Shown: in pieces, positions 7,497 to 38,561 of the stretch
How positions within the stretch are numbered: the first letter of the stretch is position 1
How the letters are laid out: the number at the start of each line of letters is the position of its first letter
NCBI GenBank assembly: GCA_964370865.1
Contig: CAYJKF010000001.1
Coordinates: 111,766 to 175,765 of the forward strand
Direction of reading: 5' to 3'
Origin: an uncultured Candidatus Saccharibacteria bacterium
GTDB taxonomy: Bacteria > Patescibacteriota > WWE3 > 2-01-FULL-39-13
Length of the DNA: 64,000 nucleotides
The notes under the pieces: generated by a model
What the model saw: the letters and a program-made list of their open reading frames with translations, nothing else
The model's database searches: none
What the model was told of the DNA's origin: nothing
Position numbers and translations under genes: made by a program

Positions 7497-10400
7497 ATGC
7501 CACCAAAAAAGTTCGAGAAACCAGTCACATTTTCTGGATGGGTTGAAGATATATTTAATCTTCCTAAAGAAGTAACTAACCAGACATTCGGAGTAATAAA
7601 AACAAAACACCAAGAATATTTGGTATGGGTAGCTAAAGCTCGTGCCTCGGATGCTGATTATGCTGAAGCAGATTTAATTCGAGCTTTTACTGAAGGTGCA
7701 GAAGCTTTATCAGATTTACAGGGTATAAATACAACTATTAAAGTTAATGAACTATACGCGAAACCTATCAATACTATTAAAGCTCTGGGACAAAGCACTC
7801 TTAAACAATTGACTGACATGGATGATCTCGCTGGTTATCGACGTGCTGATGCAATCGCTAGGTTAACCAAGGGGCAAGTTACAGACGGACGAGGTAACAT
7901 ACCAAACAGCAGATATATTGATGTTGGTCGGTCAATCAATAATCCTCAAAATTTGATCTTAAAGGGACTAACTACTTCTAGAATAATTCCTCTAAAGCCT
8001 GACGCACTAGTAGAAACCACTCCTAGTGGAAAACTGCGATCAACCATGCAACTTGTAAAAGACGTAACGGAAGGAAAAGATCCAGCAGGTGTTGGAGATT
8101 GGGAAGATCGAAAAGTTGTGGAGGATGGTGTCGGCAGGGATCAACAACATAAACCGTATTTACAACTTTCCGGAGCGTTTTCGCAAATGGCAATGGGTCT
8201 TGAGTCCTATGGCTCAAGGTTAAGTCCAAAAATTACAGTTAATACCCAATACGGTCGCGCACTTGCACAAGAAGTAGGAATTGACCTGGAAAAGGTTTTA
8301 AACGGATCAAGAGGCGGATTGAAAGCCAGTTATGACCTAGACATTAAAGATGCAGTAAGCGGAAGACCAAAATTCCTAAAAGATAATAGACTCAAAAAGA
8401 GTGGAGCAGTAACAATAGGTTCTCTGCATCTCACACTAGCAGACGATGCTGGCGGTGATATTCGGAAATTATTATCCGATGACAATTTAATAGCTAAAGC
8501 ATTATCGATTAGCCCTACTGAATACACAAGTATGAGTGGTGAAGTCAAAGAATTCTTCAAAAACTTTTTAGAAAACGAAGAAATTCAGATTCGTTCCGGT
8601 TATTTAAATCCAAGGGGCGAACTTGGTGAAGAAATAAAAGCAAAATGGAATAATGCGGGACTCGTTCCCTCTCTAGAAGGCGAAATATACACTGGTGCAG
8701 GTGCTGCTTATATTAAGAATGACTTATATCATCTATCGAATGCAAAAAGTACAAAACAGTATCTATTAGGTGATGCGTCGCAAAAACAAATTAAAGCTGA
8801 GGCCTTAAAATCTTTGAAAAAAAAATACGGACATGACGCAAAGCTATTAACAGAAAAGACCGAAGAATTTTATGACAGATTGGCTGCGTTAAATGAAGCT
8901 ACGGTATCTGCCAACACCTTATTCGCCTCTGCAACAGTTAAAGATGCACTTAAAGCTATAAAAGATGGCGATTTTATTAAAGCAGCAATCGTCAATACAA
9001 GATTGCTGGGAATGATTCCGTTTTCAAACAAAAAGATGAGATCTCCAATCGAGTGGGCTGAAATTCTTATGCCTGATAGTGCACAAGATATCATCAATAA
9101 GGGAATAAATAGACTAACTAAACCGAAAATCGATGAGTTAAAGAGATTAGCATCAAGTACGACAGATCCGGTAATTCAACAAAGATACCTTAATCAAATT
9201 AAGAATCTAGAAGGTCTGAAAAACTGGATTAATCCAATTACAATTGCCAAGAAAGTTAGCGATACCGCACAGACAGCCATTGGTATTAAGGTAAAAGGAA
9301 GTCAATTAAACGCTGCACAAAAATTGATAAATGAGCAGACCGGACTGTTCAACTCAACTGTCTTCCTGGAATGGAGACAAAGAGATCCCGTATCCATGCA
9401 AAACGCTAAACGCTACACCATGACGCGAGTAAGTTCAAAAGATGCACAAGGCTTATATGGTAAATTTGGGGTTTTTAGTATTTTTGAAGACATAGAAGCA
9501 GCAAATTTATTCGCACATCCAAGCCTATCTGGCCTCCCATATATACATGATATGCAAACGATGTTTACTGATTTATCAAACATCGATGCATTCTATGCGG
9601 AATTAGCTCGAGTTCAGAGCCATTTAAAAGCGGGGACTCCAATACCTGCGGATTTATTAGATTTTTATAACAACGTCGTAGTACCAATGAATTTCCACGA
9701 GGCATTAGGAGGTGCGGGGGAGTTTGTCATCGACAAGGTAATGGATGGATACAATCAATATAAAGTATCAGGCAAAGTTTTACTTAATAAAATATCTGAT
9801 GACGCGAAAATGGGAGTTGGCAAATTGCATGCCATTGACAGGTGGCAATTTTTAAAAACCTTCAAAGGAAGTGGCCGTGCATCACAACTAAATGATTTAT
9901 ATACAGGCTGGTTAACAAAATATAACCGCTATGCCAACTTCTTCAATGATTACATCCAAAAAAATATTATATTTGGCGATGTACTACTTGGTGTACCTAT
10001 CTTGGGAAAACTTTTTGCTCCTATTCAGGCAGTCTTACGTACGATTGGATTTAGCGAGGAAGTTACAATTGCGGCAACTGTGAGACAGTGGAAATGGGTT
10101 CAACGGCTAATCGGAACAGGAGAAAAAGCGTCGAACATAGGGGGATCACTTTCGGCACGAAGCAGTGGTTCATTATTTGTTAAATCAAGATTTTTAAGGA
10201 ATTTAACATCAAAGTTAACAGGAAAATTTGCTGGCACAGCATTAAAAGGATTAGGATTTGCACTTAAAGGTTTAACCTCTGTAATAACTGGTGGTGTAGC
10301 TTTTGTAGTTTCCACTCTCGGTACGATGGCGTTCAGTGCCAGTTTAAAACTTATTAGAGGTGATGTAAAAGGCGCAAAAATCGCGATTAAAGATGAATTT

Positions 10401-11438
10401 AAAGGATTAGTAAAAGTAGCAAAAATTGTCGTCGGTTATCCTCTTCTTGGGTTTTGTGGCTGCATTATTATTCCAATCGTAGGTATTGCCTTTGCCGTAA
10501 TCGCGATTATGGTACCAGGTTCCATGGCGCCATTTGAAGAAGTTGGTGAAGCCGTAAATGTCGGATCGGCTCTCAGTCAATCCGACTTACTACAAGTTAA
10601 TAAATCAGCAACACTTAGCGGCGACAATACTCAAATAAACTACACAGTTGTAATTACGAATATACACACACCGACTGAACCAGATGATACAGGTGAAGTT
10701 ACAATCCAACAGATTAGTGATGTCTCGTCAATGATTTTAGGATGCGACGAACCTAATGGCGGTACTTCACACAGATATGGAGATGCTGGCTTCATAGGAA
10801 ACTACGATGCTGGTTATAATTTCAACCAATATACTGGCCATGTTTTAGCAACAGGTGAAAGCTTAACCATTACTTATACTCTTTCGAATATTACAGACAA
10901 AGATGCAACGTATAATAACAATATTAACGTCCACGAATCTAGAGAAAAAATAGCTGGAAAATATGCCATCGCGAATTCAACAACAAACATAGGTAACGGG
11001 GGGTGTAATACATGTCCTAGCGGGTGGCCTGTCACTGGTGCGGTTAATATAACTAATAGGCCTGGAGAAAGTTGGACACACAGAGGTCTTTGGCCTCATT
11101 CAATAGATTTGTCACTTGTTGAAGGAACTGAAATTTATGCCACCCATAGCGGAACCGTAGCAACCTCAAATACTGGTAACTTCGGTTATGGTACACATAT
11201 TTATCTCACCTCACCGATGGGGTTTACTAGTATTTATGGACATCTTAGCGGTTTCGCGGTAGAAAACGGAGCGACTGTTCAGGCTGGAGATTTAATCGGC
11301 TATTCTGGTGATACCGGTAACTCATCCGGTCCGCATCTGCACTATGAATTCAGAATCGGGGGCTATTGCCAAGGTCAACCACTTAAGATGAAACCACCTT
11401 TCACGCCATATTATGTACCTTATGATCCGTCGTATTAG
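7497..11438 (+). CDS. giant (1313 aa) protein with central TM hairpins and C-terminal M23/LytM peptidase domain (cell-wall hydrolase)
   Basis: The C-terminus has the M23 signatures HRGLWPHSIDL (HxxxD) and GDTGNSSGPHLHYEF (HxH), flanked by glycine-rich beta segments. Residues ~870-1000 contain several hydrophobic helices (VAFVVSTLGTMAFSASL, LLGFCGCIIIPIVGIAFAVIAIMV). The N-terminal 850 aa are predicted helical and non-secreted. Confidence 0.65.
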   Translation: MPPKKFEKPVTFSGWVEDIFNLPKEVTNQTFGVIKTKHQEYLVWVAKARASDADYAEADLIRAFTEGAEALSDLQGINTTIKVNELYAKPINTIKALGQSTLKQLTDMDDLAGYRRADAIARLTKGQVTDGRGNIPNSRYIDVGRSINNPQNLILKGLTTSRIIPLKPDALVETTPSGKLRSTMQLVKDVTEGKDPAGVGDWEDRKVVEDGVGRDQQHKPYLQLSGAFSQMAMGLESYGSRLSPKITVNTQYGRALAQEVGIDLEKVLNGSRGGLKASYDLDIKDAVSGRPKFLKDNRLKKSGAVTIGSLHLTLADDAGGDIRKLLSDDNLIAKALSISPTEYTSMSGEVKEFFKNFLENEEIQIRSGYLNPRGELGEEIKAKWNNAGLVPSLEGEIYTGAGAAYIKNDLYHLSNAKSTKQYLLGDASQKQIKAEALKSLKKKYGHDAKLLTEKTEEFYDRLAALNEATVSANTLFASATVKDALKAIKDGDFIKAAIVNTRLLGMIPFSNKKMRSPIEWAEILMPDSAQDIINKGINRLTKPKIDELKRLASSTTDPVIQQRYLNQIKNLEGLKNWINPITIAKKVSDTAQTAIGIKVKGSQLNAAQKLINEQTGLFNSTVFLEWRQRDPVSMQNAKRYTMTRVSSKDAQGLYGKFGVFSIFEDIEAANLFAHPSLSGLPYIHDMQTMFTDLSNIDAFYAELARVQSHLKAGTPIPADLLDFYNNVVVPMNFHEALGGAGEFVIDKVMDGYNQYKVSGKVLLNKISDDAKMGVGKLHAIDRWQFLKTFKGSGRASQLNDLYTGWLTKYNRYANFFNDYIQKNIIFGDVLLGVPILGKLFAPIQAVLRTIGFSEEVTIAATVRQWKWVQRLIGTGEKASNIGGSLSARSSGSLFVKSRFLRNLTSKLTGKFAGTALKGLGFALKGLTSVITGGVAFVVSTLGTMAFSASLKLIRGDVKGAKIAIKDEFKGLVKVAKIVVGYPLLGFCGCIIIPIVGIAFAVIAIMVPGSMAPFEEVGEAVNVGSALSQSDLLQVNKSATLSGDNTQINYTVVITNIHTPTEPDDTGEVTIQQISDVSSMILGCDEPNGGTSHRYGDAGFIGNYDAGYNFNQYTGHVLATGESLTITYTLSNITDKDATYNNNINVHESREKIAGKYAIANSTTNIGNGGCNTCPSGWPVTGAVNITNRPGESWTHRGLWPHSIDLSLVEGTEIYATHSGTVATSNTGNFGYGTHIYLTSPMGFTSIYGHLSGFAVENGATVQAGDLIGYSGDTGNSSGPHLHYEFRIGGYCQGQPLKMKPPFTPYYVPYDPSY

Positions 11439-11457: not shown

Positions 11458-12489
11458 ATGATTAGTATAAAACCTTTGATAGAAAAAAATAAAAAAATAG
11501 CCATATTAATTCTAGTTTTATTTTTGGGTGGTTTAATTTATTATCTATTTTCGAGCGGTATATTTTTAGGTCCTGGACCAGGTACAAGTGTCATTGACCT
11601 TTCTACACCAAGTATTAATGTAGCTGGAAACCAAGAAAGTAAATATAAGATAGAAAGATCTCTTTATTTCAAAGTTACGAATCCGCACGGCGGTGAAATA
11701 CTTCCAATTTATAAATATAACAAAAATGATTTAACTACTGATGAGCAGTTAATAGGAAAAATAGCCGAAGAAGTTGGACTCACCAAAAAAAAAGAAATTA
11801 ATTCAGTTGGACAAGGAACTGTCCTTGTTTTGCATTCAGAAGATAGTGCAAGGGGTATCACATTAAATAAACAAAACAACGTTCTAACTTATAGTAATAT
11901 CAGCTACGACAAAGCTATACATTTTAAAACCAACGATCAAATCGAAAAGGCTCGTAATTCAGCAGAAAGTTTTTTGAAGGAATTAAACCTCTGGAGTGAA
12001 AATTATAGTCTAATTGGCGCTCTATATAGAGATGATAAAATATCTTCTCAACAGCCAGAAACTTCAACCCCACTAAATCAGTCTACAACTGTAGAATTTT
12101 TATTTGAAAATAAAATTGATGGCTATGAAGTATCTACTCTACCCTATTCGGTTCAAGGTGATTATATTAATATCGCGGTATCCGCTGATAATTACACCAT
12201 CACAAAAATTCAATTAGTAATTTCAGGTGAAATTTCAAGTGAACAAGGCAAGGTAAAGATTATTTCATTAAATGACCTTATTAGAGATATAGATAATGGA
12301 AACCTAAAATTAATAGATACGTTAGCAGAACCTGATGCGGTATTTGACAGAATCGTTGTGTCGGAAGCTACTATCTTTTATTATGCACTTGATGGTCAAA
12401 TAGTTCCTGCATATAGAATTACAGGAACAGCAACTGACCAACGAGGGCAAGCATCGCCTGTTTATTTTATCGCCAATGCTTTCAAATAA
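11458..12489 (+). CDS. bitopic membrane protein (N-terminal TM, extracytoplasmic domain); VirB8/PrgL-like candidate
   Basis: 343 aa with a single N-terminal helix IAILILVLFLGGLIYYLF, then a soluble domain. The VirB8-like call is based on size, topology and neighbourhood only. Confidence 0.35.
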   Translation: MISIKPLIEKNKKIAILILVLFLGGLIYYLFSSGIFLGPGPGTSVIDLSTPSINVAGNQESKYKIERSLYFKVTNPHGGEILPIYKYNKNDLTTDEQLIGKIAEEVGLTKKKEINSVGQGTVLVLHSEDSARGITLNKQNNVLTYSNISYDKAIHFKTNDQIEKARNSAESFLKELNLWSENYSLIGALYRDDKISSQQPETSTPLNQSTTVEFLFENKIDGYEVSTLPYSVQGDYINIAVSADNYTITKIQLVISGEISSEQGKVKIISLNDLIRDIDNGNLKLIDTLAEPDAVFDRIVVSEATIFYYALDGQIVPAYRITGTATDQRGQASPVYFIANAFK

Positions 12490-15400
12490 AATAGTTTATA
12501 AAATAATATTGGTTGCATTAATCCCTGTTGTGGTAATGGCAATTTTTGCAAATAGAAAAACCGAAAAAGTGTGCGCACAAGTTGAGGGCTTTGACCCAGC
12601 AAGCGCATTCGCAGAATGTATAGGACCGGAACTTGCAGCATACATGCTAGCAATATTAGATGCACAAGCTGCTGGATTAATTCCTTCTAATATCAAACTA
12701 CTATCTCCAGCCTTTAATATGACTTCGAGTACTCTTAATCCTATTGTTGGTGCTGTAAACGAAGCAGCTCCAGGAATCTTTAATCATCCAAATTTAGTTG
12801 GAATTGCAGGTAATATATATGACACTAGTGGTGGAAATTCTATGGGAGATTACTGGTCGAACCAAAATATTAACGGGCTATTTGGAAATATCCCAATTTA
12901 TATTACTGAAACAGGAAATACTGAAAATAGCGGACTATCAAACAGACAAACTGCAGATAATATTGCCGCATTACTGCAAAGCAATCCTAACATTCAAAAT
13001 ATTTCGCTATTTGTTCCAACCGGAAGTAATCCCGCGTATGGTCATCATTCGTGGTCTCAAGACGAAATAAATTATCTTTGCAGCATAACTAACGGGTGCG
13101 AAAAAATTGGTATTAATTATGGAACGTATTTTGGTGGAAATGATTATCACGATGTTAATAACTACAATATGAATTCAGGACTGCAAATCGCCGACATGGG
13201 AAGTATTCCAAGTATTATAGAGGCAGTAAACAATTCTAACGGGGATGTAATTGTAAGAATTGGAGTTGGATCAAGTTCAGGAGGATTTGATACTCCACAA
13301 GCTTATATAAAGTTTCTTAAAGAATTGGGTGACAGTTTACCCCCTGGAGCTAGCGTATTTGCTATTGCTGGTCCAAACGAACCGGATTTAGAGGGCTGGT
13401 TAAGTCCAGAATGCATGAACCTCTTACCTATTAATCCAGCTGACATGTTATGTGGAGGACGAATTGATGAAAAACCCGTGGGTTATCGAGGTGAGGTCGT
13501 TGGACATAATGGTGAAATTCCATGGAGTATCAATTCTAACTTACATCAACAGAAAGATCTTATAGGTGGAACGGTTGAAGGTCAATTAGCATCAACCCTC
13601 CAAGCAGAATTTATAATAAGAGTCCCGCCAAATACTTTTAGACACAATGATTTTAGAGTCGTATCCGATCAAATGGTAGGTTCATTAGATCCAGATGATC
13701 CAAACAATCTCTATTTCGAAGATCGGTTGAGAGACGAAGATGGATTTATAAGTCCACTGAAAGCAAATATGCCTATTTTCAACTCAGCCTTACCTGGAGT
13801 AAAAATTCCGAGTAGTTATTCAGTTGGCATAAATGAGACCTTTCAGTTTGCAGAGTCAAATGAGACACCTGAAGCATATTTAGAGAGAATTTTCAAAAAA
13901 ACTCCTGAACCTGGAGATGGACGTAAACCAGAATTCGGATGGCTCACAGAAATGCCAGCAATGGTTTTTCGAGCATGTATTCAACGGTCTGCCTGCAACC
14001 TTGGTGTAGAAGAATGTTTGAGGGCAGACGGAAGCGGTGAGCTATGCGATGGGAGCGATGATGCTGAGGATTGTAGACCATTTGGACGAACTTTTAATTT
14101 GACTGGCAGGATTGGCCATCGAGAACCTACTGAACTTCACTCGATTTCAAGAAGTTTTGAATTGCAAAAGAGACAACTTGTAGATAGACCAGGCGAACCA
14201 ACTAGTTTCGGAGCTGTTGTAACACAAGAAGATTTGTCTAGATCAACCTATGTCTTTAAAGATCCTGATTTAAATGAGTTAGCGGATGGTATGAAATATA
14301 TTCAAGAGATAAGTCAAAATAGAAATACAAACTATAAAACCTCAAGTGGAAAAGAAGTAACAGTTGCCAACACTAATAATGGTTCTTTAATCAAACCTGC
14401 AGTGGCAAATGCTCAAGGTGATCCAATGGCTCAACCACAAGGGTCACTCGGTGTTGTTGTTATCGAGTTAGGAGGCAATCAGGTTCAAATAGACTATGAA
14501 ACATGTGTTTGGCATCAACTTGGATCTGCTTGTGCAATTCGAGATGTTAGTACAACAATTAATGGACAAGGAACTTTTAACTATATACCAGTTACTCAAG
14601 CAAATATACCAAGGTGTCTAAAACCAAGCTGGGGAAATGCTCCAGTTATTACAGCAGATCTTGCACCAGGAACTTGTACAACACTAAGTGTTCACACAAG
14701 AGGTGGTAGAGTTGGTCCAGAAGGTTGTAGCGATACCTATCAAGACTCCTGCGAAATTTGTAGAGCAAATGATGGAACGATAACTCAAACCTGTGGAATA
14801 ATTCCTCCACCACCACCCGTTGATTGTAGTCAATGTGCAAGTTGGGCACCCAGTTGGCTATGCGCACCAATTATCGCAGACCCCTTACCCGAAGAAACCG
14901 AGTGTGCAGATGGAGCATGTACCTCAAGCGGAAAAATAAGCATAGAAAAAGAGATTCCATGGCAGGATGATGATGATGACCCCGATGATATAAATGATTG
15001 GATTATAAACTGGCTCGATCGACTTAGAGAAGGGGATTTTACCTGGCTAAGTGGACTCTTGGCTGGACTTTTAGAGACAGAAAGAACTGGCGTTAGATGC
15101 GATATCGACTATTCTCTTCCTTCAGAGTCCCCGGGAGGTATTCGTTTCCCAATAGGAATTGAATGTTGGTTTGGATCGCGAGATTATTTAGTATATGCAT
15201 ATCCAATAACATATATTGGCGACTTTGGTGAGAGAACGGTCGATATGTCTATAAACAATGCTATGTTCAGATTAAGTAACAAAACTGACCAATATTTTTG
15301 GCCACAAAGTACAAAAGCACCAGTAACCTTAAAGCTATCGTTAAGAGATCCAACAATTGATGACGAAACCGTAAGATTTGAGGTCCCAAATGGATCCGAA

Positions 15401-16027
15401 CGAGGCTTTGAAATTGGCGCACAAAATACGTTTTATTTAGGACTTAATGACTCTGGTGAAAGAACCATGTTTGTTGAGTATTACTACTTTATGCAACCAC
15501 AGACGAGTGGACAGTGTTTAAAACAGCGTTTCTTATCTCAACCGATTCCTTTGCCTGGCGGAGGAACCGGAGTTCCACTAAGTCATAATACGCTTTGCGG
15601 TTCTCAGGATTTTTGGACTTCTGGCATTACTAGTGGCGACACTACTTCAGCAGTGGATCAAAGAATGATGGCAGCCGTAGAACAAATAGAACAAAATCTA
15701 CTTGCTACTACTGATAGCCAAGATAAAGTTGCCGCTGAAATAAATTTAGATCAAGATATAGTTCCTCAAATTCGAAAATTATATGAACAAGATAAGCATG
15801 CAGATTATGCTGGTAGCAAAATTATGTCGAACATGACATTATCAGAAGTTGAAAATCTTCAAAATCAATTTCTTTCTGAATTTGAAATCATCCTAAATAA
15901 ATACTTCATGTCGAGTGGTAAAGGAGTTTTTAAGGATATAAACGATACACCCGAAAGCATGGAGAAAGAACTAGATGCCTTAGTTAGAAAATACGATAAT
16001 CGGGTTAGCGCTATCGTGAATAACTAA
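12476..16027 (+). CDS. giant (1183 aa) secreted Cys-rich surface protein
   Basis: N-terminal TM/signal (IILVALIPVVVMAIF). A Cys-dense segment CSDTYQDSCEICRANDG...CGIIPPPPPVDCSQCASWAPSWLCAP, an acidic DDDDDPDD run, and no catalytic motif I can place. The start overlaps the previous gene by 14 nt. Confidence 0.5.
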   Translation: MLSNKIVYKIILVALIPVVVMAIFANRKTEKVCAQVEGFDPASAFAECIGPELAAYMLAILDAQAAGLIPSNIKLLSPAFNMTSSTLNPIVGAVNEAAPGIFNHPNLVGIAGNIYDTSGGNSMGDYWSNQNINGLFGNIPIYITETGNTENSGLSNRQTADNIAALLQSNPNIQNISLFVPTGSNPAYGHHSWSQDEINYLCSITNGCEKIGINYGTYFGGNDYHDVNNYNMNSGLQIADMGSIPSIIEAVNNSNGDVIVRIGVGSSSGGFDTPQAYIKFLKELGDSLPPGASVFAIAGPNEPDLEGWLSPECMNLLPINPADMLCGGRIDEKPVGYRGEVVGHNGEIPWSINSNLHQQKDLIGGTVEGQLASTLQAEFIIRVPPNTFRHNDFRVVSDQMVGSLDPDDPNNLYFEDRLRDEDGFISPLKANMPIFNSALPGVKIPSSYSVGINETFQFAESNETPEAYLERIFKKTPEPGDGRKPEFGWLTEMPAMVFRACIQRSACNLGVEECLRADGSGELCDGSDDAEDCRPFGRTFNLTGRIGHREPTELHSISRSFELQKRQLVDRPGEPTSFGAVVTQEDLSRSTYVFKDPDLNELADGMKYIQEISQNRNTNYKTSSGKEVTVANTNNGSLIKPAVANAQGDPMAQPQGSLGVVVIELGGNQVQIDYETCVWHQLGSACAIRDVSTTINGQGTFNYIPVTQANIPRCLKPSWGNAPVITADLAPGTCTTLSVHTRGGRVGPEGCSDTYQDSCEICRANDGTITQTCGIIPPPPPVDCSQCASWAPSWLCAPIIADPLPEETECADGACTSSGKISIEKEIPWQDDDDDPDDINDWIINWLDRLREGDFTWLSGLLAGLLETERTGVRCDIDYSLPSESPGGIRFPIGIECWFGSRDYLVYAYPITYIGDFGERTVDMSINNAMFRLSNKTDQYFWPQSTKAPVTLKLSLRDPTIDDETVRFEVPNGSERGFEIGAQNTFYLGLNDSGERTMFVEYYYFMQPQTSGQCLKQRFLSQPIPLPGGGTGVPLSHNTLCGSQDFWTSGITSGDTTSAVDQRMMAAVEQIEQNLLATTDSQDKVAAEINLDQDIVPQIRKLYEQDKHADYAGSKIMSNMTLSEVENLQNQFLSEFEIILNKYFMSSGKGVFKDINDTPESMEKELDALVRKYDNRVSAIVNN

Positions 16028-31129: not shown

Positions 31130-32755
31130 ATGTCAAAACAAATTTTATACAACCAAGAGGCAAGAAATAAATTAAAGAATGGCGTTGATGCTGTTGCAAA
31201 TGCAGTTGGCGCAACAATGGGACCACTCGGTAGAAATGTCGGAATCCAAAGTAAATGGGGTTCACCAAACATTACACATGACGGAGTTACCGTTGCAAAA
31301 GAAATTGAATTAAAAGATCCGTTTGAAAATATGGGAGCAAAATTAGTGCTTCAAGCAGCAACAAAAACAAATGATGTTGCTGGAGATGGAACAACTACGG
31401 CGACCGTGCTTGCTCAAGCCCTTGTCGAAGAAGGTTTAAAAAATGTAGCTGCCGGCGCGAACCCAATGTTTATAAGAAGAGGTTTAGAAAAAGCAGCAAA
31501 AAGTTTAATCGAAGAAATAAGAGCTATGGCAACTCCCATTAATGGAAAAGATGATCAAACTCAAGTTGCAACTAACTCTGCACAAGATGAACAAATCGGA
31601 GGAATTATTGCCGAGGCAATGTCAAAAGTTGGCGCTGACGGAGTAATCACTGTAGAAGAAGGAAAAAGTTTAGAGATGGAATTAAAAGTTAAAGATGGAT
31701 TAAATTTTGATAATGGATATCTCTCCCCTTACTTTGTAACTGATCCAGATAAGATGATGGCAGAAATTGAAGATGCCAGAATTTTAATCACGGATAAGAA
31801 AATTAGTAACATTCAAGATTTGGTTCCAATGCTAGAAGGTTTAGTCAAAATAACAAACAATTTAGTTATTGTCGCTGATGATGTTGAGGGACAAGCCCTT
31901 GCAACTCTTGTTGTTAACAAAATGAGGGGCACTTTGAAAGTATTAGCTGTAAAGGCTCCAGGATTTGGTGACAGAAGAAAGGCCATGTTAGAAGATATTG
32001 CAGTAGTTACAGGTGGTACTGTTATTAGTGATGATTTAGGACGTAAGTTAGATTCCGTAACCACAGAGGACCTTGGTCAAGCAGATAAAGTAATCTCCTC
32101 AAAAGAAGACACAACGATAGTTGGTGGAAAAGGAGACAAACAAGCTATCGATGCAAGAGTTGCAACAATTAGAAATGAGATGGATAAATCCACGAGTGAT
32201 TATGATAGGGAGAAATTACAAGAGAGGCTCGCTAAATTAATTGGTGGCGTTGCAATTATAAGCGTTGGAGCCGCTACCGAATCGGAAATGAAAGAGAAAA
32301 AATATAGAGTTGAAGATGCAGTAAATGCAACCCAAGCTGCAGTCGCTGAAGGAATTGTCCCTGGCGGTGGAGTTGCCTTATTAAAAGCCCGCAAACGATT
32401 GGATAATATATCCTTAGAGGGTGACGAGAAAATTGGCGCAACCATTCTATACAATGCTCTGGAAAAACCATTTAGAAAAATTGTAACCAATGCAGGTTTA
32501 GAACCAGGAATGTATATAAAAGAAATTGAAGAGAATTTAGACAAAAGCATTGGTCTTAATGTTTTAACCGGCAAACTGGAGGATATGATAAAAGCTGGAG
32601 TAATCGATCCAGCAAGAGTTACCAGAAGTGCGATCGAGAACGCAGTCAGTGTAACAATAAGTGTTATAACGACAGATGCGTTAATCGCCGATGAACCAGA
32701 AATAGAAAAAGAACATGACCACTCCGCACATGGCGGAATGGATGGCATGATGTAA
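31130..32755 (+). CDS. groL: chaperonin GroEL
   Basis: 541 aa. [34 protein letters not shown] and the C-terminal GGMDGMM tail. Confidence 0.95.
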
Positions 32756-32829: not shown

Positions 32830-34074
32830 ATGGAGAATCCTGCCAATGAGCAATTAAACACCCAAGAAGTCAACAATTCAGAATTCGCACAGAAAGAGCC
32901 ACTTGTTTATAAAAAAACTATAAAAAAATATGCAATGATCGCGGTGAGTGGCTTATTAGGACTGGCCATAATAATTACTGCTGTCGTTATCTATATGCGT
33001 TTTATGGATAGATTTAATGTGACGGAACCAACTCCACCGGTGACACCAACACCAACTCCTGAAATACCAAAAGCAGCATCGCCATTAATCGCCTATATTA
33101 AAAATGATAAATCAATTTGGATTGTAAACACTGATGGAACTGATAAAAAAGTATTGCTCGAACTGCCTGGATCATCGGATCAGTTCTTCTCGGATCTGAC
33201 TTGGAAAAGCAAAGGGTTTCTATCTTATTCACTCTGTGACACAAATCCAAATTGTACTGTGGAGACTTATAATTTAGAGACAAAGTCTTCTGTAACAGAA
33301 ATTAATAATTCAGAAGAAGGATTTGTGGAGTCATTAACTTGGGCACCTGAAAATAAATTCATCGGGTATTTTCAATACAAAGACCAAGGATCTCAGAACC
33401 AAACGGTGGAACTAAGACTTAAGACTGGAACAACCAATACTGTTTTATCAACACATAAAACAGAAATAAAAGATATCGAACAAGTCTCAAAAGTAACTTT
33501 CTCAGAAGACGAGGATCATATAGCCTTTGGTTTTGTAGAATTAGTTGCTTCAACAAGAGGCCGGACTATTACATATACAGCAAAACCTAAAATCTTAGTA
33601 TATAGAGTAAGCGGAGTATTGTTGGATACAATCAGCGATGCCAAAGACCCGATGTTCATAGACGAAAAAACCATCGCATATCAAAAGGGAGCACAGCTCA
33701 TACATAGGGAAATTGGGACATTATCAGAAACAGCTATTACTCCAATAACAGGATTCAACTTAGATGTTTCTCCTGACAAAAGTAAGTATGCATATTGGAG
33801 CCCTACAGGTGGATTCTCAGATGCTTTATTAATTATTTTTGATGGAAACCTAAACCTTCAAAGGAATATATTAAGAGGCGTCCTATTTCCACAGTGGATA
33901 AGCAACTCTACCGTTGTTGGGATAAAAGCTGATAACTGTTTAGGTTCAAAATGTGAATTATTCGATTATCAAACCATTAGTTTAGCTACCGTTAACATCG
34001 AAACAAAACAAGCAAATCCAATTGATCAAGGTCGCACTATTAAAGATGTTGAAGTAAATTACTATGCCAATTAA
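32830..34074 (+). CDS. membrane-anchored hypothetical protein with Pro/Thr linker and beta-rich extracytoplasmic domain
   Basis: 414 aa. TM helix IAVSGLLGLAIIITAVVIYM, linker TEPTPPVTPTPTPEIP, then a repetitive beta-strand-like domain. The stop overlaps the next gene's start by 11 nt. Confidence 0.4.
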   Translation: MENPANEQLNTQEVNNSEFAQKEPLVYKKTIKKYAMIAVSGLLGLAIIITAVVIYMRFMDRFNVTEPTPPVTPTPTPEIPKAASPLIAYIKNDKSIWIVNTDGTDKKVLLELPGSSDQFFSDLTWKSKGFLSYSLCDTNPNCTVETYNLETKSSVTEINNSEEGFVESLTWAPENKFIGYFQYKDQGSQNQTVELRLKTGTTNTVLSTHKTEIKDIEQVSKVTFSEDEDHIAFGFVELVASTRGRTITYTAKPKILVYRVSGVLLDTISDAKDPMFIDEKTIAYQKGAQLIHREIGTLSETAITPITGFNLDVSPDKSKYAYWSPTGGFSDALLIIFDGNLNLQRNILRGVLFPQWISNSTVVGIKADNCLGSKCELFDYQTISLATVNIETKQANPIDQGRTIKDVEVNYYAN

Positions 34075-35746
34075 AGAAGAATCACTAGAGGCCAATGCAG
34101 GTCAAAAACACCCAGTCCCACAGAACGTCATGGATGTTGAGTTTAAAGTTGTAGGAGATTTAACATTAAGGCAAGTCATGTATATTGCATTTGGGGGAGT
34201 TACAGCATACTTTTTATATAAAACAGGTTTACCAAATTTCTGGAAATATATACTAATGGGAATAAGTTTGATTACCGGAACGACAGTTGCTTTTGTTCCA
34301 ATTCAGGAACGCGGGCTTGATAAATGGTTAGTTATATTTATTAATTCAATCGTGAATCCGACCCAAATGATATGGAGAAAGTCTGTTAATTATGCCTCTG
34401 TATCCTTTTTATCAAACTACGACCAACTTCAAATAATAAAAAACGAAATGGTCTCACTTACACCTATTAAGAATCGTAACCGACTAGAAGAATATTTGGG
34501 TATGATTGAAAACACTCAAGATTCTAATTATGACCAATTCGAGATAACCCGAATGGGAGAAATCCAAAATAACCTAAGCGCTAAATCAAACGTTAGTGTC
34601 ACAACTCGCTTTGAAGAAACTCCAACTCTAGAACCTGTAATTCCGACTATTGATAAAGCCAGAATTCCAGAGAGAACACATGAAATAATTGACGTAGAAA
34701 AGAATCCAAAAATAGCTTCTCTTCCACACCAAAATACCATTGCTGAAGACGAGCTGGAGAGTAAGAAGGAGTTATTAAATGCCCTAGCAAACATCGAGGG
34801 AGGGTATAATAAAGATGGGCCAATCGAAATCTTTACTGAACAAAAGGTTAACAGACCTATTCTAAATCTACCTGAGCTTGGATCCAATAACTTCTCCTTG
34901 AAGGGTGAAATTAAATTAAAGAATATACGTAAATTCCCAACGGTAATCGTTGCCGAAGATATAAAAGGCATAAAAGAGCACGAAGAATCTCTAGAAAAAA
35001 AAGTATCAGAATTATTAATACTCGCAAAAAAAGCTAGAGCACAGTATCAAATTAAAAGTGGAAAAGAACCTAGTTTTAATACACCTATTGTTGAGGACGT
35101 TAAAGGCAGGGTTACGCAGTTAAGAGAGGAAAAGAAAAAACTTAAATTGGAAATTGATAAAAGCACAGAACAAGTAAATCTTATAGATAATACAAACAAA
35201 AACAGAGAAACACTTCAAAACCAAATTCAGATGTTAACACATAAAAATGAGGAACTTGAAACCATACTAAAGAAAATTAACTTAGAACTTGATGAACTGA
35301 AAGGAACACCAGAATACAAGGCTTCCAAGCAAAAAGAACCTGTAGAAAAGGTTGAAACTGAAGAAACTAAAACTGAAGAAGTGTTTACACCTGAAAAACC
35401 AATTACCCCAAAACCAATCGACAACCAGGTCGATGAGTTTAAATTCAAAGCAAGGCCATCCGTCAATAGTTCGTATCAAAACACTAATATTATCGAAGGA
35501 CTTGTAAAAGACATCTCTGGTAAACTAGTAGAAGGAGCAGCGGTTATTATTAAAGACTCACAGGGAAATGTTATTAGAGCCCTAAAAACTAACCAAGTCG
35601 GACAGTTCAGAACGCAGACTTCTGTACCAAATGGCAAATATACAATTGAAGTACTAAAAGGTGGCATGAGTTTTGATATTATAATAGTTGAAGCCGTTGG
35701 AAGGCATCTGAATCCAATTTACTTAGTAGCCAAGGAGTTAAATTAA
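34064..35746 (+). CDS. PrgI/VirB3-like two-helix membrane module fused to long coiled-coil domain
   Basis: The N-terminus DLTLRQVMYIAFGGVTAYFLY plus a second helix ILMGISLITGTTVAFVPI resembles the PrgI family of Gram-positive T4SS. It is followed by ~350 aa of K/E/L heptad-rich sequence. It lies directly upstream of the VirB4-like ORFs. Confidence 0.45.
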   Translation: MPIKEESLEANAGQKHPVPQNVMDVEFKVVGDLTLRQVMYIAFGGVTAYFLYKTGLPNFWKYILMGISLITGTTVAFVPIQERGLDKWLVIFINSIVNPTQMIWRKSVNYASVSFLSNYDQLQIIKNEMVSLTPIKNRNRLEEYLGMIENTQDSNYDQFEITRMGEIQNNLSAKSNVSVTTRFEETPTLEPVIPTIDKARIPERTHEIIDVEKNPKIASLPHQNTIAEDELESKKELLNALANIEGGYNKDGPIEIFTEQKVNRPILNLPELGSNNFSLKGEIKLKNIRKFPTVIVAEDIKGIKEHEESLEKKVSELLILAKKARAQYQIKSGKEPSFNTPIVEDVKGRVTQLREEKKKLKLEIDKSTEQVNLIDNTNKNRETLQNQIQMLTHKNEELETILKKINLELDELKGTPEYKASKQKEPVEKVETEETKTEEVFTPEKPITPKPIDNQVDEFKFKARPSVNSSYQNTNIIEGLVKDISGKLVEGAAVIIKDSQGNVIRALKTNQVGQFRTQTSVPNGKYTIEVLKGGMSFDIIIVEAVGRHLNPIYLVAKELN

Positions 35747-36442
35747 ATGAATAACAATATCAAAACTACGACACAAGGTCACCTTGACATAGCAGATATA
35801 AAAAATAATATTGTAATCTTAACAAACGGAGGAGCCTGCGCAATTATAGAAACCAATGCAATTAATTTTGATTTATTATCCCTACCCGAACAAGATGCAG
35901 CGATTTCATCCTTTAGTGCGTTGCTCAATTCCCTAACTTTTCCAATGCAGATTACAATTAGATCAAAAAAAATGGACATAAGCGAGTATTTAGAAAGGAT
36001 TAAAGAAGTTGAAGATAAACAAACAAACCCCAAGATCAGAGGACAAATAATGGCATACAGAACGTTCATCAAAGACGAACTTGTTACAAAAGAGGAAGTT
36101 TTAGATAAAAATTTTTACGTCACTATTCCATACAAAACAGTTTCTCTTGGTTCAATTTCACCTATGACTTGGATAAATGACTTAATGAATTTAGATACAA
36201 AAAACAAAAGTAAAATAAATGTCGAATCCATATTACAAGAAGCTACTCCAGATCTAGCCCCGAAAATTTCGTTTATACTTAAAGAATTCTCGAGGATGGG
36301 AATAAAAGCAAGACAATTAGGAACTGGCGAATTGATTAAACTTTTCTATGATTTATATAATAGTGAGAGTGCTCAGAGCCAGAAAATGAGGACCAATATG
36401 GCAGACTTCTCGTCTGTATTAGTTGAGCCAAAATTAGGATAA
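35747..36442 (+). CDS. VirB4/PrgJ-like conjugation ATPase, N-terminal domain (separate ORF)
   Basis: 231 aa. HLDIADIKNNIVILTNGGACAIIETNAINFDLLSLPEQDAAISSFSALLNSLTFPMQI matches the N-terminal domain pattern of Gram-positive VirB4 homologs. It ends at TAA 36440-36442, 4 nt before the next ORF, which is in a different frame. Confidence 0.55.
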   Translation: MNNNIKTTTQGHLDIADIKNNIVILTNGGACAIIETNAINFDLLSLPEQDAAISSFSALLNSLTFPMQITIRSKKMDISEYLERIKEVEDKQTNPKIRGQIMAYRTFIKDELVTKEEVLDKNFYVTIPYKTVSLGSISPMTWINDLMNLDTKNKSKINVESILQEATPDLAPKISFILKEFSRMGIKARQLGTGELIKLFYDLYNSESAQSQKMRTNMADFSSVLVEPKLG

Positions 36443-36446
36443 AAAT

Positions 36447-38561
36447 ATGTTAGGAATATTTGGGAAGAAAAAACAAGAGAAACCAAAAACTAATATTCCA
36501 AGCGATATGGAACAACCCGAAAATGTATCGAAAGCACTCTTAAAGGGAATTCCAGGGGTAAAAGATATAATCGCACCAAGCGCAATTGAAGTTGATTATA
36601 ATCATATAAAAATTGGAGATAAATATTTCAGAACCCTATTCATTTCTGCATACCCAAGATTCTTAGGCGCAAACTGGCTAGAACCAATAATAAACTTCAA
36701 TCATACAATGAGCATTTCAATGTTTTATTATCCAGTAAATGCGAGAAATGTTTTAGATGATATGAGAAGAAAAATCGCAGAAATGGAAGCCTCCATAAAC
36801 ATTGCGCGCGACAAAGGTAAAGTTGTAGATCCTGGAATTCAAGTGGCTCTGGAAGATGCGAAATCGCTACAGGAACAACTAGTAAAAGGGATTGAAAGAT
36901 TTTTTCACTATTCGTTCTATGTAACGTTTTCAGCCGATTCCTTAGAGGAACTAAAGGACGTATCTTATCAAGTTGAATCAACATTAGGGTCAATGGGACT
37001 GATGTCGAAAAAAGCTTCCCTTGATATGGAAAATGCTTTTAAAAGCACCCTTCCTCTTTGTTTAGATAAACTAAAAATAATTCGAAACATGGATACTACT
37101 TCCGTGGCTACAACCTTTCCGTTTACATCCAGCGATTTAACGGCGAATGAAGGAATTTTATATGGTGTAAATAAACATAACAGATCATTGGTTATTTTTG
37201 ATCGATTTAGTCTTGAGAACTACAACACTGTAGTCTTTGCCAAATCAGGTTCTGGTAAATCATATCTAGTGAAACTTGAAGCACTGAGATATTTGCTATT
37301 TGGCGTGGATATTATCGCCATAGATCCCGAAACTGAATACAGAAGATTATGCGAAGCTGTTGGGGGAGACTATATAGACTTCAATATAAAAAGTCAATCT
37401 AAGATAAATCCTTTTGAATTACCAGTTGTCACTGATACAGAAGATCAGTTAAGTCTTAAAATTTTAAGCCTTCATGCTCTTTTTAAAATTATGTTAGGAG
37501 CACTCTCCCCTGCAGAATCATCTATTCTGGATAGAGCCTTGGTAGATGTATATAGACTAAAAGGCATTACACAGGATGCTGCCACACAGAAAAATGAGCC
37601 TCCTCTAATGGAAGATTTATATAAAGTTCTACTTGCCATGGATGAACCAGAGTCTAAAGCTATTTCCGAGAGACTCGAAAGATTTATAAAGGGCTCCTTA
37701 GCAGGTGTATTTGATCAACGTTCAAATATCAATTTAGATAATAACTTCACTGCATTTTCGATTCGAAACCTTGAGGATGTATTAAGGCCAATCGCAATGT
37801 TTATGATTTTGGATTTTATTTGGACAAAGGTTAAATATGATCTCAAAAAACGTATATTAATTTTGGATGAGGCCTGGACGTTAATGCAATATCCTGATTC
37901 GGCTGCATATGTTTATTCATTAGCGAAAAGAGCCCGAAAATATTTCTTAGGATTAACAACTATTACTCAAGATGTTGCCGACTTCTTAGGTTCAGATTAT
38001 GGAAAAGCTGTTTTAAATAACTCCTCAATTCAAATACTACTAAAACAACATCCAGCCGCAATCGATAAAGTTGCTGAAGTCTTTTACTTGTCAGCAGGAG
38101 AAAGAAATTTCTTGCTTTCAGCAGGTGTTGGCGAGGGATTATTCTTTGCTGGAACCAACCACGTGGCAATTCAATTCAAGGCTTCGAAACAAGAACATTT
38201 GTTAATTACTACAAATCCTCAGGAAGTTGCGAAAATCGATGCTGATAAAAGCTTTAATGATTCACTAAAAACCGTAGATGAAAAAAACCAAACTAATGCT
38301 CCTCAGCAAGTGGGGATAGCTAATAAATATCAAATTATTGAACAGATTCCGCAACAAACACCAGTAGAAACCAATAGTGAAGTTATTGATCCTTTCGATA
38401 AAATTAGTCCCGTCTCAACTTCAGATGAGACTAAACCTATAAGCAATGCCGGCATTACTCCAATGCCAAATCCCTACTCTGGAATAACTGGAGATGACAG
38501 TGAAAATTATAAATCTGGAACAATTATTCTAAACGAAAGAAATTCAAGACCTACGGCGTAA
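36447..38561 (+). CDS. VirB4/PrgJ-like conjugation ATPase, ATPase body (Walker A/B) with C-terminal low-complexity tail
   Basis: IKIGDKYFRTLFISAYPRFLGANWLEPIINF (VirB4 mid-region), Walker A FAKSGSGKSY, Walker B RILILDEAW, then a ~100-aa Pro/Thr/Asn-rich tail. AGGA ribosome-binding site 7 nt upstream of the ATG. Confidence 0.7.
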   Translation: MLGIFGKKKQEKPKTNIPSDMEQPENVSKALLKGIPGVKDIIAPSAIEVDYNHIKIGDKYFRTLFISAYPRFLGANWLEPIINFNHTMSISMFYYPVNARNVLDDMRRKIAEMEASINIARDKGKVVDPGIQVALEDAKSLQEQLVKGIERFFHYSFYVTFSADSLEELKDVSYQVESTLGSMGLMSKKASLDMENAFKSTLPLCLDKLKIIRNMDTTSVATTFPFTSSDLTANEGILYGVNKHNRSLVIFDRFSLENYNTVVFAKSGSGKSYLVKLEALRYLLFGVDIIAIDPETEYRRLCEAVGGDYIDFNIKSQSKINPFELPVVTDTEDQLSLKILSLHALFKIMLGALSPAESSILDRALVDVYRLKGITQDAATQKNEPPLMEDLYKVLLAMDEPESKAISERLERFIKGSLAGVFDQRSNINLDNNFTAFSIRNLEDVLRPIAMFMILDFIWTKVKYDLKKRILILDEAWTLMQYPDSAAYVYSLAKRARKYFLGLTTITQDVADFLGSDYGKAVLNNSSIQILLKQHPAAIDKVAEVFYLSAGERNFLLSAGVGEGLFFAGTNHVAIQFKASKQEHLLITTNPQEVAKIDADKSFNDSLKTVDEKNQTNAPQQVGIANKYQIIEQIPQQTPVETNSEVIDPFDKISPVSTSDETKPISNAGITPMPNPYSGITGDDSENYKSGTIILNERNSRPTA

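Follow-up and report, generated by a model that had tools for sequence, protein, structure and literature searches.

Two adjacent open reading frames, ORF1 and ORF2, in the 64,000-nucleotide stretch of DNA analysed here (the window) are best read as two bona fide genes of a chromosomal type IV secretion system (T4SS), coding for a TrsD-family protein and a VirB4 ATPase respectively, which have been split since ancient times and whose products likely constitute a non-covalent unit. We place the probability of this reading at about 0.9. The host of the locus would be a Patescibacterium related to WWE3/Katanobacteria, and the T4SS itself is probably of the monoderm MPF_FATA type.

Gene organization of the locus

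ORF1 occupies positions 35747-36442 of the forward strand (231 aa; ATG at 35747 and TAA stop at 36440-36442), and ORF2 occupies positions 36447-38561 of the same strand (704 aa; ATG at 36447) whose frame is +1 with respect to that of ORF1; the junction consists of a stop, 4 nt and a start. An A-rich run, TAAAAAT, lies at this junction, and a Shine-Dalgarno-like AGGA (36436-36439, forward strand) overlaps the final sense codons of ORF1 and precedes the ATG of ORF2 by 7 nt. A TAG at 36435-36437 closes the frame of ORF2 12 nt ahead of the ATG. On rereading the sequence, the coordinates given by the preliminary description for both ORFs, the AGGA and the TAG proved exact, as did the +1 frame; its statement that a 1-nt indel around 36430-36446 would fuse the two ORFs holds only if a base is lost between the TAG and the TAA, at about 36438-36439, and fails for an indel elsewhere in that interval.

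These genes are the third and fourth of a tightly packed operon on the forward strand, in the order 414-aa gene, PrgI/VirB3-like fusion, TrsD (ORF1) and VirB4 (ORF2). The 414-aa gene (32830-34074), taken from the list of open reading frames, is conserved but has no assigned function, and its product gave no confident match in Pfam or NCBIfam; the gene order is the same in the related loci L001 and L003, the latter coding for a 414-aa protein of 34% identity. It overlaps by 11 nt with the gene for a 560-aa protein (34064-35746), which according to Pfam combines a PrgI/VirB3-like N-terminal region (PrgI, 1e-7, aa 17-98) with a C-terminal part bearing a CarboxypepD_reg-like domain (aa 477-535). 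In two other related loci (L005 and L006) separate adjacent genes match the two parts of this protein. The stop codon of the 560-aa gene (TAA, 35744-35746) directly abuts the ATG of ORF1, and a Shine-Dalgarno-like AAGGAG (35732-35737, forward strand) is found 9 nt upstream of that ATG. The system is chromosomal and lies amid housekeeping genes, with GroES/GroEL upstream.

ORF2 is a VirB4-type ATPase with a truncated N-terminal domain

The profile conju_CD1110 (NF045971) recovers ORF2 with 396.5 bits (E = 2.3e-118), well above the curated equivalog cut-off of 325, over profile positions 186-744 of 752. Further matches to P-loop_TraG (PF19044; 3.5e-30) and to the VirB4 structure PDB 4AG5 (1.2e-47) bear out the earlier recognition of a VirB4-like ATPase body in this ORF. 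Its translation shows an intact Walker A motif, AKSGSGKS (aa 265-272, positions 37239-37262, forward strand), and an intact Walker B region, ILILDEAW (aa 470-477, positions 37854-37877, forward strand), and both ORF1 and ORF2 are full length. ORF2 does not hold the full N-terminal domain and the ATPase on one polypeptide: about 185 N-terminal profile positions of the CD1110 family are missing from it, and the absent stretch corresponds to ORF1, nothing else in the operon supplying it. An alignment of the N-termini of ORF2 and its relatives shows a variable Lys-rich stretch first, with the conserved body beginning at about aa 30; the pattern M..F.KKK is conserved as the start, the TrsE protein of the plasmid pSK41 included.

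ORF1 is a distant member of the TrsD/TraD family

Against the NCBIfam TrsD/TraD model NF041427, ORF1 scores 26.4 bits (E = 5.1e-6), far below the curated cut-off of 200, suggesting that it is a distant member of the TrsD family. Among the precomputed matches listed for the Pfam family PF26593 ('TraC-like') at E <= 1e-5 are the exact ORF1 protein and 120/120 of the homologues listed; a Pfam scan of ORF1 and two homologues at E <= 10, using a Pfam copy older than PF26593, gave no match. A profile-profile comparison (hhalign) with pSK41 TrsD returned a probability of 93% (E = 3.2e-7) over 174 columns. Taken together, these comparisons support a homology of ORF1 to the TrsD family, as judged from sequence. 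A PDB sequence search with the ORF1 profile gave no meaningful match, and a fold comparison of the ORF1 model gave a match to TrwK/VirB4 only, the model superposing on TrwK. For a C. botulinum VirB4 of the CD1110 type, which is full length, the profile match between its N-terminus and ORF1 is weak (hhalign E = 4e-4, probability 34%). ORF1 is remotely homologous to the N-terminal part of VirB4, and as a stand-alone protein of 231 aa, whose gene follows a VirB3-like gene and directly precedes that of a VirB4-type ATPase, it fits the size (about 200-230 aa) and setting of the family.

The listed lengths of TrsD homologues range from 155 to 787 aa, and their C-terminal extensions are highly variable; the longest non-fused homologues, at about 715 aa, are without any Pfam match. 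Some ORF1 relatives have 317 aa and a partner ORF2 of 608 aa, but this does not mean that the split point has shifted: the boundary is unchanged when the ORF2 N-termini are aligned, and the added length is a TrsD C-terminal extension. A weak BLAST HSP had also raised the idea that ORF1 arose by internal duplication of the ORF2 N-terminal region, which is not supported, the hhalign probability being 2.6%.

Conservation of the split

The closest relatives of the window all come from WWE3 or other Patescibacteria (MAGs). A 231-aa protein identical to ORF1 was read from at least 24 contigs of independent assembly, and 43 index blocks list it; 369 homologues, nearly all of 226-250 aa, extend down to 43% identity, and a relative is encoded in 482 species-representative genomes. 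The comparison of the junction among relatives that the preliminary description had called for was carried out on 84 loci with both genes, spanning 80 species-representative genome loci from WWE3 and other Patescibacteria. At every one of them (84/84) ORF1 is terminated by a stop and ORF2 begins with an ATG. The genes are separated by -4 to +9 nt in 76 of the 84, the full range of spacers being -4 to +65 nt. An SD-like core is present 3-12 nt upstream of the ORF2 ATG in 54/80 related loci, usually as GAGGA(A/G), which encodes the C-terminal Glu-Glu of ORF1. The frame of ORF2 relative to ORF1 is offset by 0 in 19, by +1 in 33 and by +2 in 32 loci, indicating that the +1 offset in the window is incidental. 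The weight previously laid on the 'different frames' of the two ORFs was hence misplaced: in the closest species (L008, 97% amino acid identity) both genes lie in one frame with a 3-nt spacer, yet a TAA stands between them.

Comparison with this closest species gave dN 0.022, dS 1.8 and pS 0.68 for ORF1, and dN 0.011, dS 0.93 and pS 0.53 for ORF2, with a dN/dS of about 0.012 in both genes; this pattern of substitution indicates strong purifying selection on the pair. A rare natural fused relative (P0215, 787 aa) joins the two parts exactly at the TrsD/VirB4 boundary. The AF2 model of this protein (pLDDT 53, pTM 0.29) is too poor to be used for the packing of TrsD on the VirB4 body.

Interpretation of the split gene pair

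The conserved stop and ATG, the purifying selection and the analogous pair in pSK41 (see below) argue for a functional two-subunit split, which was one of the options raised at the outset. In evolutionary terms, ORF1 would correspond to the N-terminal ~200 residues of a VirB4 of full length, and ORF2 would represent the rest, namely the remaining N-terminal domain and the RecA-like ATPase domain. ORF2 is probably translated from its own ATG. The location of the Shine-Dalgarno-like element within the last codons of ORF1, together with the 4-nt spacer, would favour termination-reinitiation coupling at the junction and hence a roughly matched synthesis of TrsD and VirB4. Most likely the products of ORF1 and ORF2 associate non-covalently to form a unit resembling VirB4, in which TrsD would supply the N-terminal subdomain that is membrane-proximal, with VirB3, in solved diderm systems. 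The split appears to be ancient and to have been reversed now and then by fusion, its boundary being common to the TrsD-TrsE pair of pGO1/pSK41.

A more speculative extension, to which we give a rather low probability, is that the TrsD/VirB4 seam is a joint that is mobile in evolution, kept open by nearly all Patescibacteria and closed again by a few, with TrsD serving as a modular adaptor and not simply as a detached piece of VirB4. If this were true, the split would allow adjustment of the TrsD:VirB4 ratio by the cell, or an exchange of lineage-specific C-terminal extensions of TrsD, and thereby tune the docking of the ATPase on the PrgI/VirB3-fusion membrane platform of an epibiont's essential T4SS.

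We also give a low probability to a role of TrsD that is separate from that of VirB4, either as a diverged paralogue or as an accessory factor in its own right, such as an assembly chaperone, a regulator or a membrane adaptor, rather than as a stoichiometric piece of VirB4. The remoteness of the similarity between ORF1 and VirB4 N-termini, the high variability of the TrsD C-terminal extensions and the report of Gracilibacteria TrsD genes lying apart from virB4 (PMC12102498) would be in keeping with such a role. Against it, the profile coordinates of ORF1 and ORF2 are colinear with VirB4, the fused form found in nature is joined exactly at the boundary, the genes are adjacent and tightly coupled almost throughout the 84 loci, the ~185 positions absent from ORF2 have no other source in the operon, and an origin by internal duplication found no support.

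That the two ORFs are instead joined by a programmed +1 ribosomal frameshift or by bypass of the stop codon, with a fused VirB4 of ~935 aa as the functional product, is very improbable. The proximity of the ORFs (4 nt), the A-rich run and the existence of a viable fused architecture in nature (P0215) might suggest it, but the variable offsets and spacers, the own ATG at all 84 loci, mostly with an SD-like core upstream, and the retention of M..F.KKK as a start even in pSK41 TrsE refute this earlier proposal. The proposed check for a slippery A-run did locate TAAAAAT at the junction, but the last codons of ORF1, GGA-TAA, permit no re-pairing in the +1 frame, and the TAG at 36435-36437 leaves a window of only 2-3 nt for a shift. 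The combination typical of prfB/dnaX, a conserved frame with a slippery site and no independent downstream start, is not found here.

We regard it as scarcely credible that the locus is a pseudogene in which a recent inactivating indel cut a once-intact virB4 in two: canonical VirB4 proteins do combine an ORF1-like region with the ATPase on a single chain, as seen from the profile coordinates and P0215, but pSK41 and relatives of as little as 42% identity keep the same boundary, dN/dS is equally low on both halves in spite of heavily diverged synonymous sites relative to L008, and both ORFs are complete with intact Walker motifs. An artificial split through a 1-nt miscall in sequencing or assembly, for which the AT-rich region with its short A-runs might be invoked, has a negligible probability too, as the gene calls and junction sequence are the same in the independent assemblies L001 and L002, the protein recurs unchanged on the other contigs noted above, all 84 loci are split across different projects and assemblers, and the same-frame relatives L008 and L003 still have a stop codon between the genes.

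Relationship to known systems

The pairing of TrsD with VirB4 is conserved across Patescibacteria and some Gram-positive plasmids and is already known, having been described for Patescibacteria (PMC12102498), and in this respect the present finding is ordinary; current understanding is unchanged by these results. To the published picture the present analysis adds the junction statistics, the natural fused variant, the match of the fold to TrwK and, for this lineage, the PrgI fusion; the first three of these lend modest support to the view that TrsD is a detached N-terminal subdomain of VirB4. For annotation, two genes should be called (trsD-like and virB4/trsE-like), with no flag for a frameshifted pseudogene.

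Among characterized systems, the staphylococcal conjugative plasmids pSK41/pGO1 (MPF_FATA, pGO1 subclass) offer a close parallel with their TrsD-TrsE pair, as do the TraD proteins that NCBIfam places in one family with TrsD (NF041427). In pSK41 the genes trsC, trsD (227 aa) and trsE (672 aa) reproduce the order of the window, i.e. VirB3-like/PrgI, a TrsD of ~230 aa and a VirB4-type ATPase of ~670-700 aa. By hhalign, pSK41 TrsD shows homology to ORF1 along its entire length, and residue 2 of TrsE aligns with residue 1 of ORF2 (1e-45), implying that the split point is the same. The window differs in that its system is chromosomal rather than borne on a conjugative plasmid, in the fusion of its VirB3-like gene to a large extra domain, and in the low sequence identity. 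A Pontibacillus megaplasmid likewise carries a TrsD-like gene of 274 aa (hhalign E = 1.6e-29), after which come a VirB4 of 621 aa and an M23 peptidase.

With the full-length VirB4 ATPases, such as TrwK of R388 (PDB 7O41/7O42/8RTB), the CD1110 family of Bacillota and the Mbov_0397 family of Mollicutes, ORF1 and ORF2 are colinear in profile coordinates, and the C-terminal domain of ORF2 is that of a typical VirB4 ATPase, whereas the N-terminal subdomain is a separate polypeptide in the window. The name TrsD is absent from the main text of Guglielmini et al. 2014 (PMC4027160).

The nearest counterpart is the Patescibacterial (CPR) T4SS described by Quiñonero-Coronel et al. 2025 (PMC12102498), who reported that TrsD is remotely homologous to the N-terminus of VirB4 and that, adjoining virB4, it exceeds in abundance every other T4SS component found in this group, with 1,664 of 2,272 TrsD homologues associated with virB4. 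They report that the TrsD homologue of Ca. Southlakia epibionticum ML1, which lies beside virB4, is listed as essential, and cite Wang et al. 2023 for the essentiality of the T4SS in that organism. Several of the related loci analysed here adjoin dnaN/dnaA, a neighbourhood that fits the origin-proximal location given in the same work. The component set is the same as in the window (VirB4, TrsD and PrgI/VirB3, with TrsD beside virB4) and there is no substantive difference between the two; the locus is thus one further instance of the Patescibacterial T4SS that is reported to be essential for the epibiotic lifestyle.

Identity of the two proteins

The downstream gene, ORF2 (704 aa, ATG at 36447 to 38561, plus strand), encodes a VirB4-type type IV secretion (T4SS) ATPase. 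It matches the Pfam models P-loop_TraG, AAA_10 and DUF87, exceeds the cut-off of 325 for NCBIfam conju_CD1110 (396.5 bits), aligns with the crystallised VirB4 C-terminal domain (4AG5, 1.2e-47), and contains intact Walker A (AKSGSGKS) and Walker B (ILILDEAW) motifs. The CD1110 profile (752 positions) is matched by ORF2 only at 186-744, and a mycoplasma VirB4 profile (894 positions) only at 293-892. The upstream gene, ORF1 (231 aa, ATG at 35747 to TAA at 36440-36442, plus strand), matches positions 100-236 of the same mycoplasma profile (E 4e-10). A scan of ORF1 against a local copy of Pfam returned no match; a match to Pfam PF26593 ("TraC-like") is precomputed in a protein database, and the TrsD/TraD model NF041427 is matched with an E of 5e-6, at a score well under its trusted cut-off. 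In sequence and in structure, ORF1 is homologous to the N-terminal subdomain of VirB4, which ORF2 lacks.

In the TrsD-family proteins P0122-P0269 the conserved domain is always N-terminal and the C-terminal extensions are very variable, with no Pfam match in those tested. Lengths among the matches listed range from 155 to 787 aa, the last being the fused protein P0215; many are of 300-600 aa, and the longest non-fused proteins have about 715 aa.

The junction and its operon

Re-reading the window sequence confirmed the coordinates of the preliminary description exactly: AGGA at 36436-36439 precedes the ORF1 stop, ORF2 begins in the +1 frame relative to ORF1, and a TAG at 36435-36437 closes its frame upstream. 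The spacer directly before the ORF2 ATG is AAAT. In the same operon, and also on the plus strand, a 414-aa gene (32830-34074) and a 560-aa gene (34064-35746) share an overlap of 11 nt; the latter's TAA abuts the ORF1 ATG, and AAGGAG lies 9 nt upstream of that ATG. As these neighboring junctions are equally tight, the ORF1/ORF2 junction resembles any other intergenic junction of the operon.

In the 560-aa protein, a PrgI/VirB3-like region (aa 14-194) and a CarboxypepD_reg-like C-terminal part (aa 462-556) are fused. The two parts are adjacent separate genes in other Patescibacteria, such as at the related loci L005 (PrgI of 186 aa and a 705-aa protein) and L006 (190 and 613 aa). This gene is a second fusion/fission polymorphism within the TrsD-VirB4 operon. 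GroES/GroEL lie directly upstream of the operon (31130-32755 and upstream), and the G+C content of the window is 36%. The operon adjoins dnaN in the related loci L003, L005, L006 and L088, with dnaA following dnaN in L006, in agreement with the origin-proximal T4SS location noted in PMC12102498.

Conservation of the split and selection on both genes

The preliminary description had left four readings of a VirB4 encoded in two frames: a functional split, a programmed frameshift, a recent inactivating indel or an assembly error. It had proposed comparing the junction in related genomes. A homology search with ORF1 recovered 369 relatives from WWE3 and other Patescibacteria, nearly all of 226-250 aa and with identities down to 43%; in a survey with one genome per species, 482 genomes encoded a relative. 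Each diverged relative that was spot-checked showed the gene order PrgI, (X), TraC-like, P-loop ATPase. The junction was compared in 80 loci kept from the species scan together with the window and loci fetched earlier, 84 of which hold both genes. A stop codon terminates ORF1 in all 84 (TAA in 63, TGA in 12, TAG in 9), and an ATG-initiated ORF2 comes next in each, across a spacer of 65 nt at most, which in 76 loci measures -4 to +9 nt. In 54/80 loci an SD-like core is present 3-12 nt before the ORF2 ATG; it typically reads GAGGA(A/G) and at the same time supplies the codons for the two C-terminal Glu residues of ORF1.

A conserved programmed frameshift is excluded by the variable offset of ORF2 relative to ORF1 (0 in 19 loci, +1 in 33, +2 in 32). 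In L008, the closest species (97% amino-acid identity), the 3-nt spacer places both genes in one frame, yet a TAA still separates them. A recent inactivating indel is incompatible with the conserved split and with strong purifying selection on both genes, as dN/dS against L008 is about 0.012 for ORF1 (dN 0.022, dS 1.8) and for ORF2 (dN 0.011, dS 0.93). An assembly error is dismissed by the split in 84/84 loci, by the identical ORF1 protein in at least 24 contigs read (43 index blocks listed), and by gene calls and junction sequence identical to the window in the independent assemblies L001 and L002. ORF1 and ORF2 are two independently initiated genes under selection, almost invariably adjacent and tightly spaced, which bears out the functional split.

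Although the proteins of L008 are 97% identical, synonymous sites of 35747-38561 and L008 (1100-3264) are heavily diverged (pS 0.68 for ORF1 and 0.53 for ORF2); the constraint on both proteins is unusually extreme. In two MAG loci, L009 (4681-6776) and L087 (2860-4848), the ORF2 relative is itself broken into two frames, in L009 as a 155-aa ORF followed by the remainder in another frame; these breaks could be local frameshift errors or pseudogenes.

Proposed mechanism

Termination-reinitiation would couple translation of ORF1 and ORF2 and so yield matched amounts of the two proteins, which would then join non-covalently as a VirB4-like protomer. On the model of the R388 inner-membrane complex (VirB3-VirB4-VirB6-VirB8-VirB10), which is represented among the Foldseek matches, TrsD would take the membrane-proximal side, close to the PrgI/VirB3-like product of the preceding gene. 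An AF2 model of a fused relative (pLDDT 53) is too poor for judging a TrsD-VirB4 interaction.

Comparison with known systems

The TrsD-VirB4 arrangement is already published. TrsD occurs in the pGO1 subclass of MPF_FATA and, of the T4SS components recovered from Patescibacteria, is the most abundant, with 1,664 of 2,272 homologues associated with virB4; a TrsD homologue adjoining virB4 is listed as essential in Ca. Southlakia epibionticum ML1 (Quiñonero-Coronel et al. 2025, PMC12102498). In the summary of a 2025 FEMS review (PMC12857230), the patescibacterial T4SS is indispensable to epibiotic growth. The locus in the window is an ordinary case of this system, and in practice annotation of its two genes as a frameshifted virB4 pseudogene should be avoided.

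In the window, a 1313-aa protein (7497-11438) carries a C-terminal M23 peptidase domain; two ORFs of 343 and 1183 aa, neither with a Pfam match, come next (11458-16027). Similarity of the M23 region to the peptidase that immediately follows virB4 in L088 and on a Pontibacillus sp. megaplasmid suggests a T4SS-associated cell-wall hydrolase, which in this genome lies about 25 kb away.

The staphylococcal conjugative plasmid pSK41 has the same gene order as the window: trsC (VirB3-like), trsD (227 aa) and trsE (672 aa, VirB4-like). TrsD aligns over its whole length with the ORF1 profile (hhalign probability 93%, E 3.2e-7) and the alignment of TrsE begins with its residue 2 against residue 1 of ORF2, Lys-rich N-terminus included (E 1e-45); the split boundary is thus the same in both. 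The Pontibacillus megaplasmid (NZ_CP062975.1, 355436-361354) encodes a TrsD-like 274-aa protein (hhalign E 1.6e-29) and, after it, a VirB4 of the CD1110 family (621 aa) and a large M23 peptidase (1050 aa). This Bacillota plasmid is typed as non-mobilizable and carries the same TrsD-VirB4-M23 module, and its VirB4 is the best plasmid match of ORF2 (37% identity). In a full-length VirB4 (797 aa) of a C. botulinum plasmid, residues 25-218 align weakly and colinearly with the ORF1 profile (E 4e-4). Among the best 150 TrsD-profile matches from 1.84 billion representatives, the single fused protein is P0215 (787 aa), whose residues 1-199 match ORF1 (42% identity) and 213-767 match ORF2 (64%). It derives from a Patescibacterium and occurs on three contigs, including L088 (4001-6364; ENA/NCBI assembly) and L089 (877-3240; Logan assembly of a sequencing run), in both of which a 273-aa PrgI gene precedes and an 890-aa M23 peptidase gene follows; dnaN stands at the end of L088. 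The TrsD/VirB4 boundary thus acts as a domain seam, usually split and occasionally fused.
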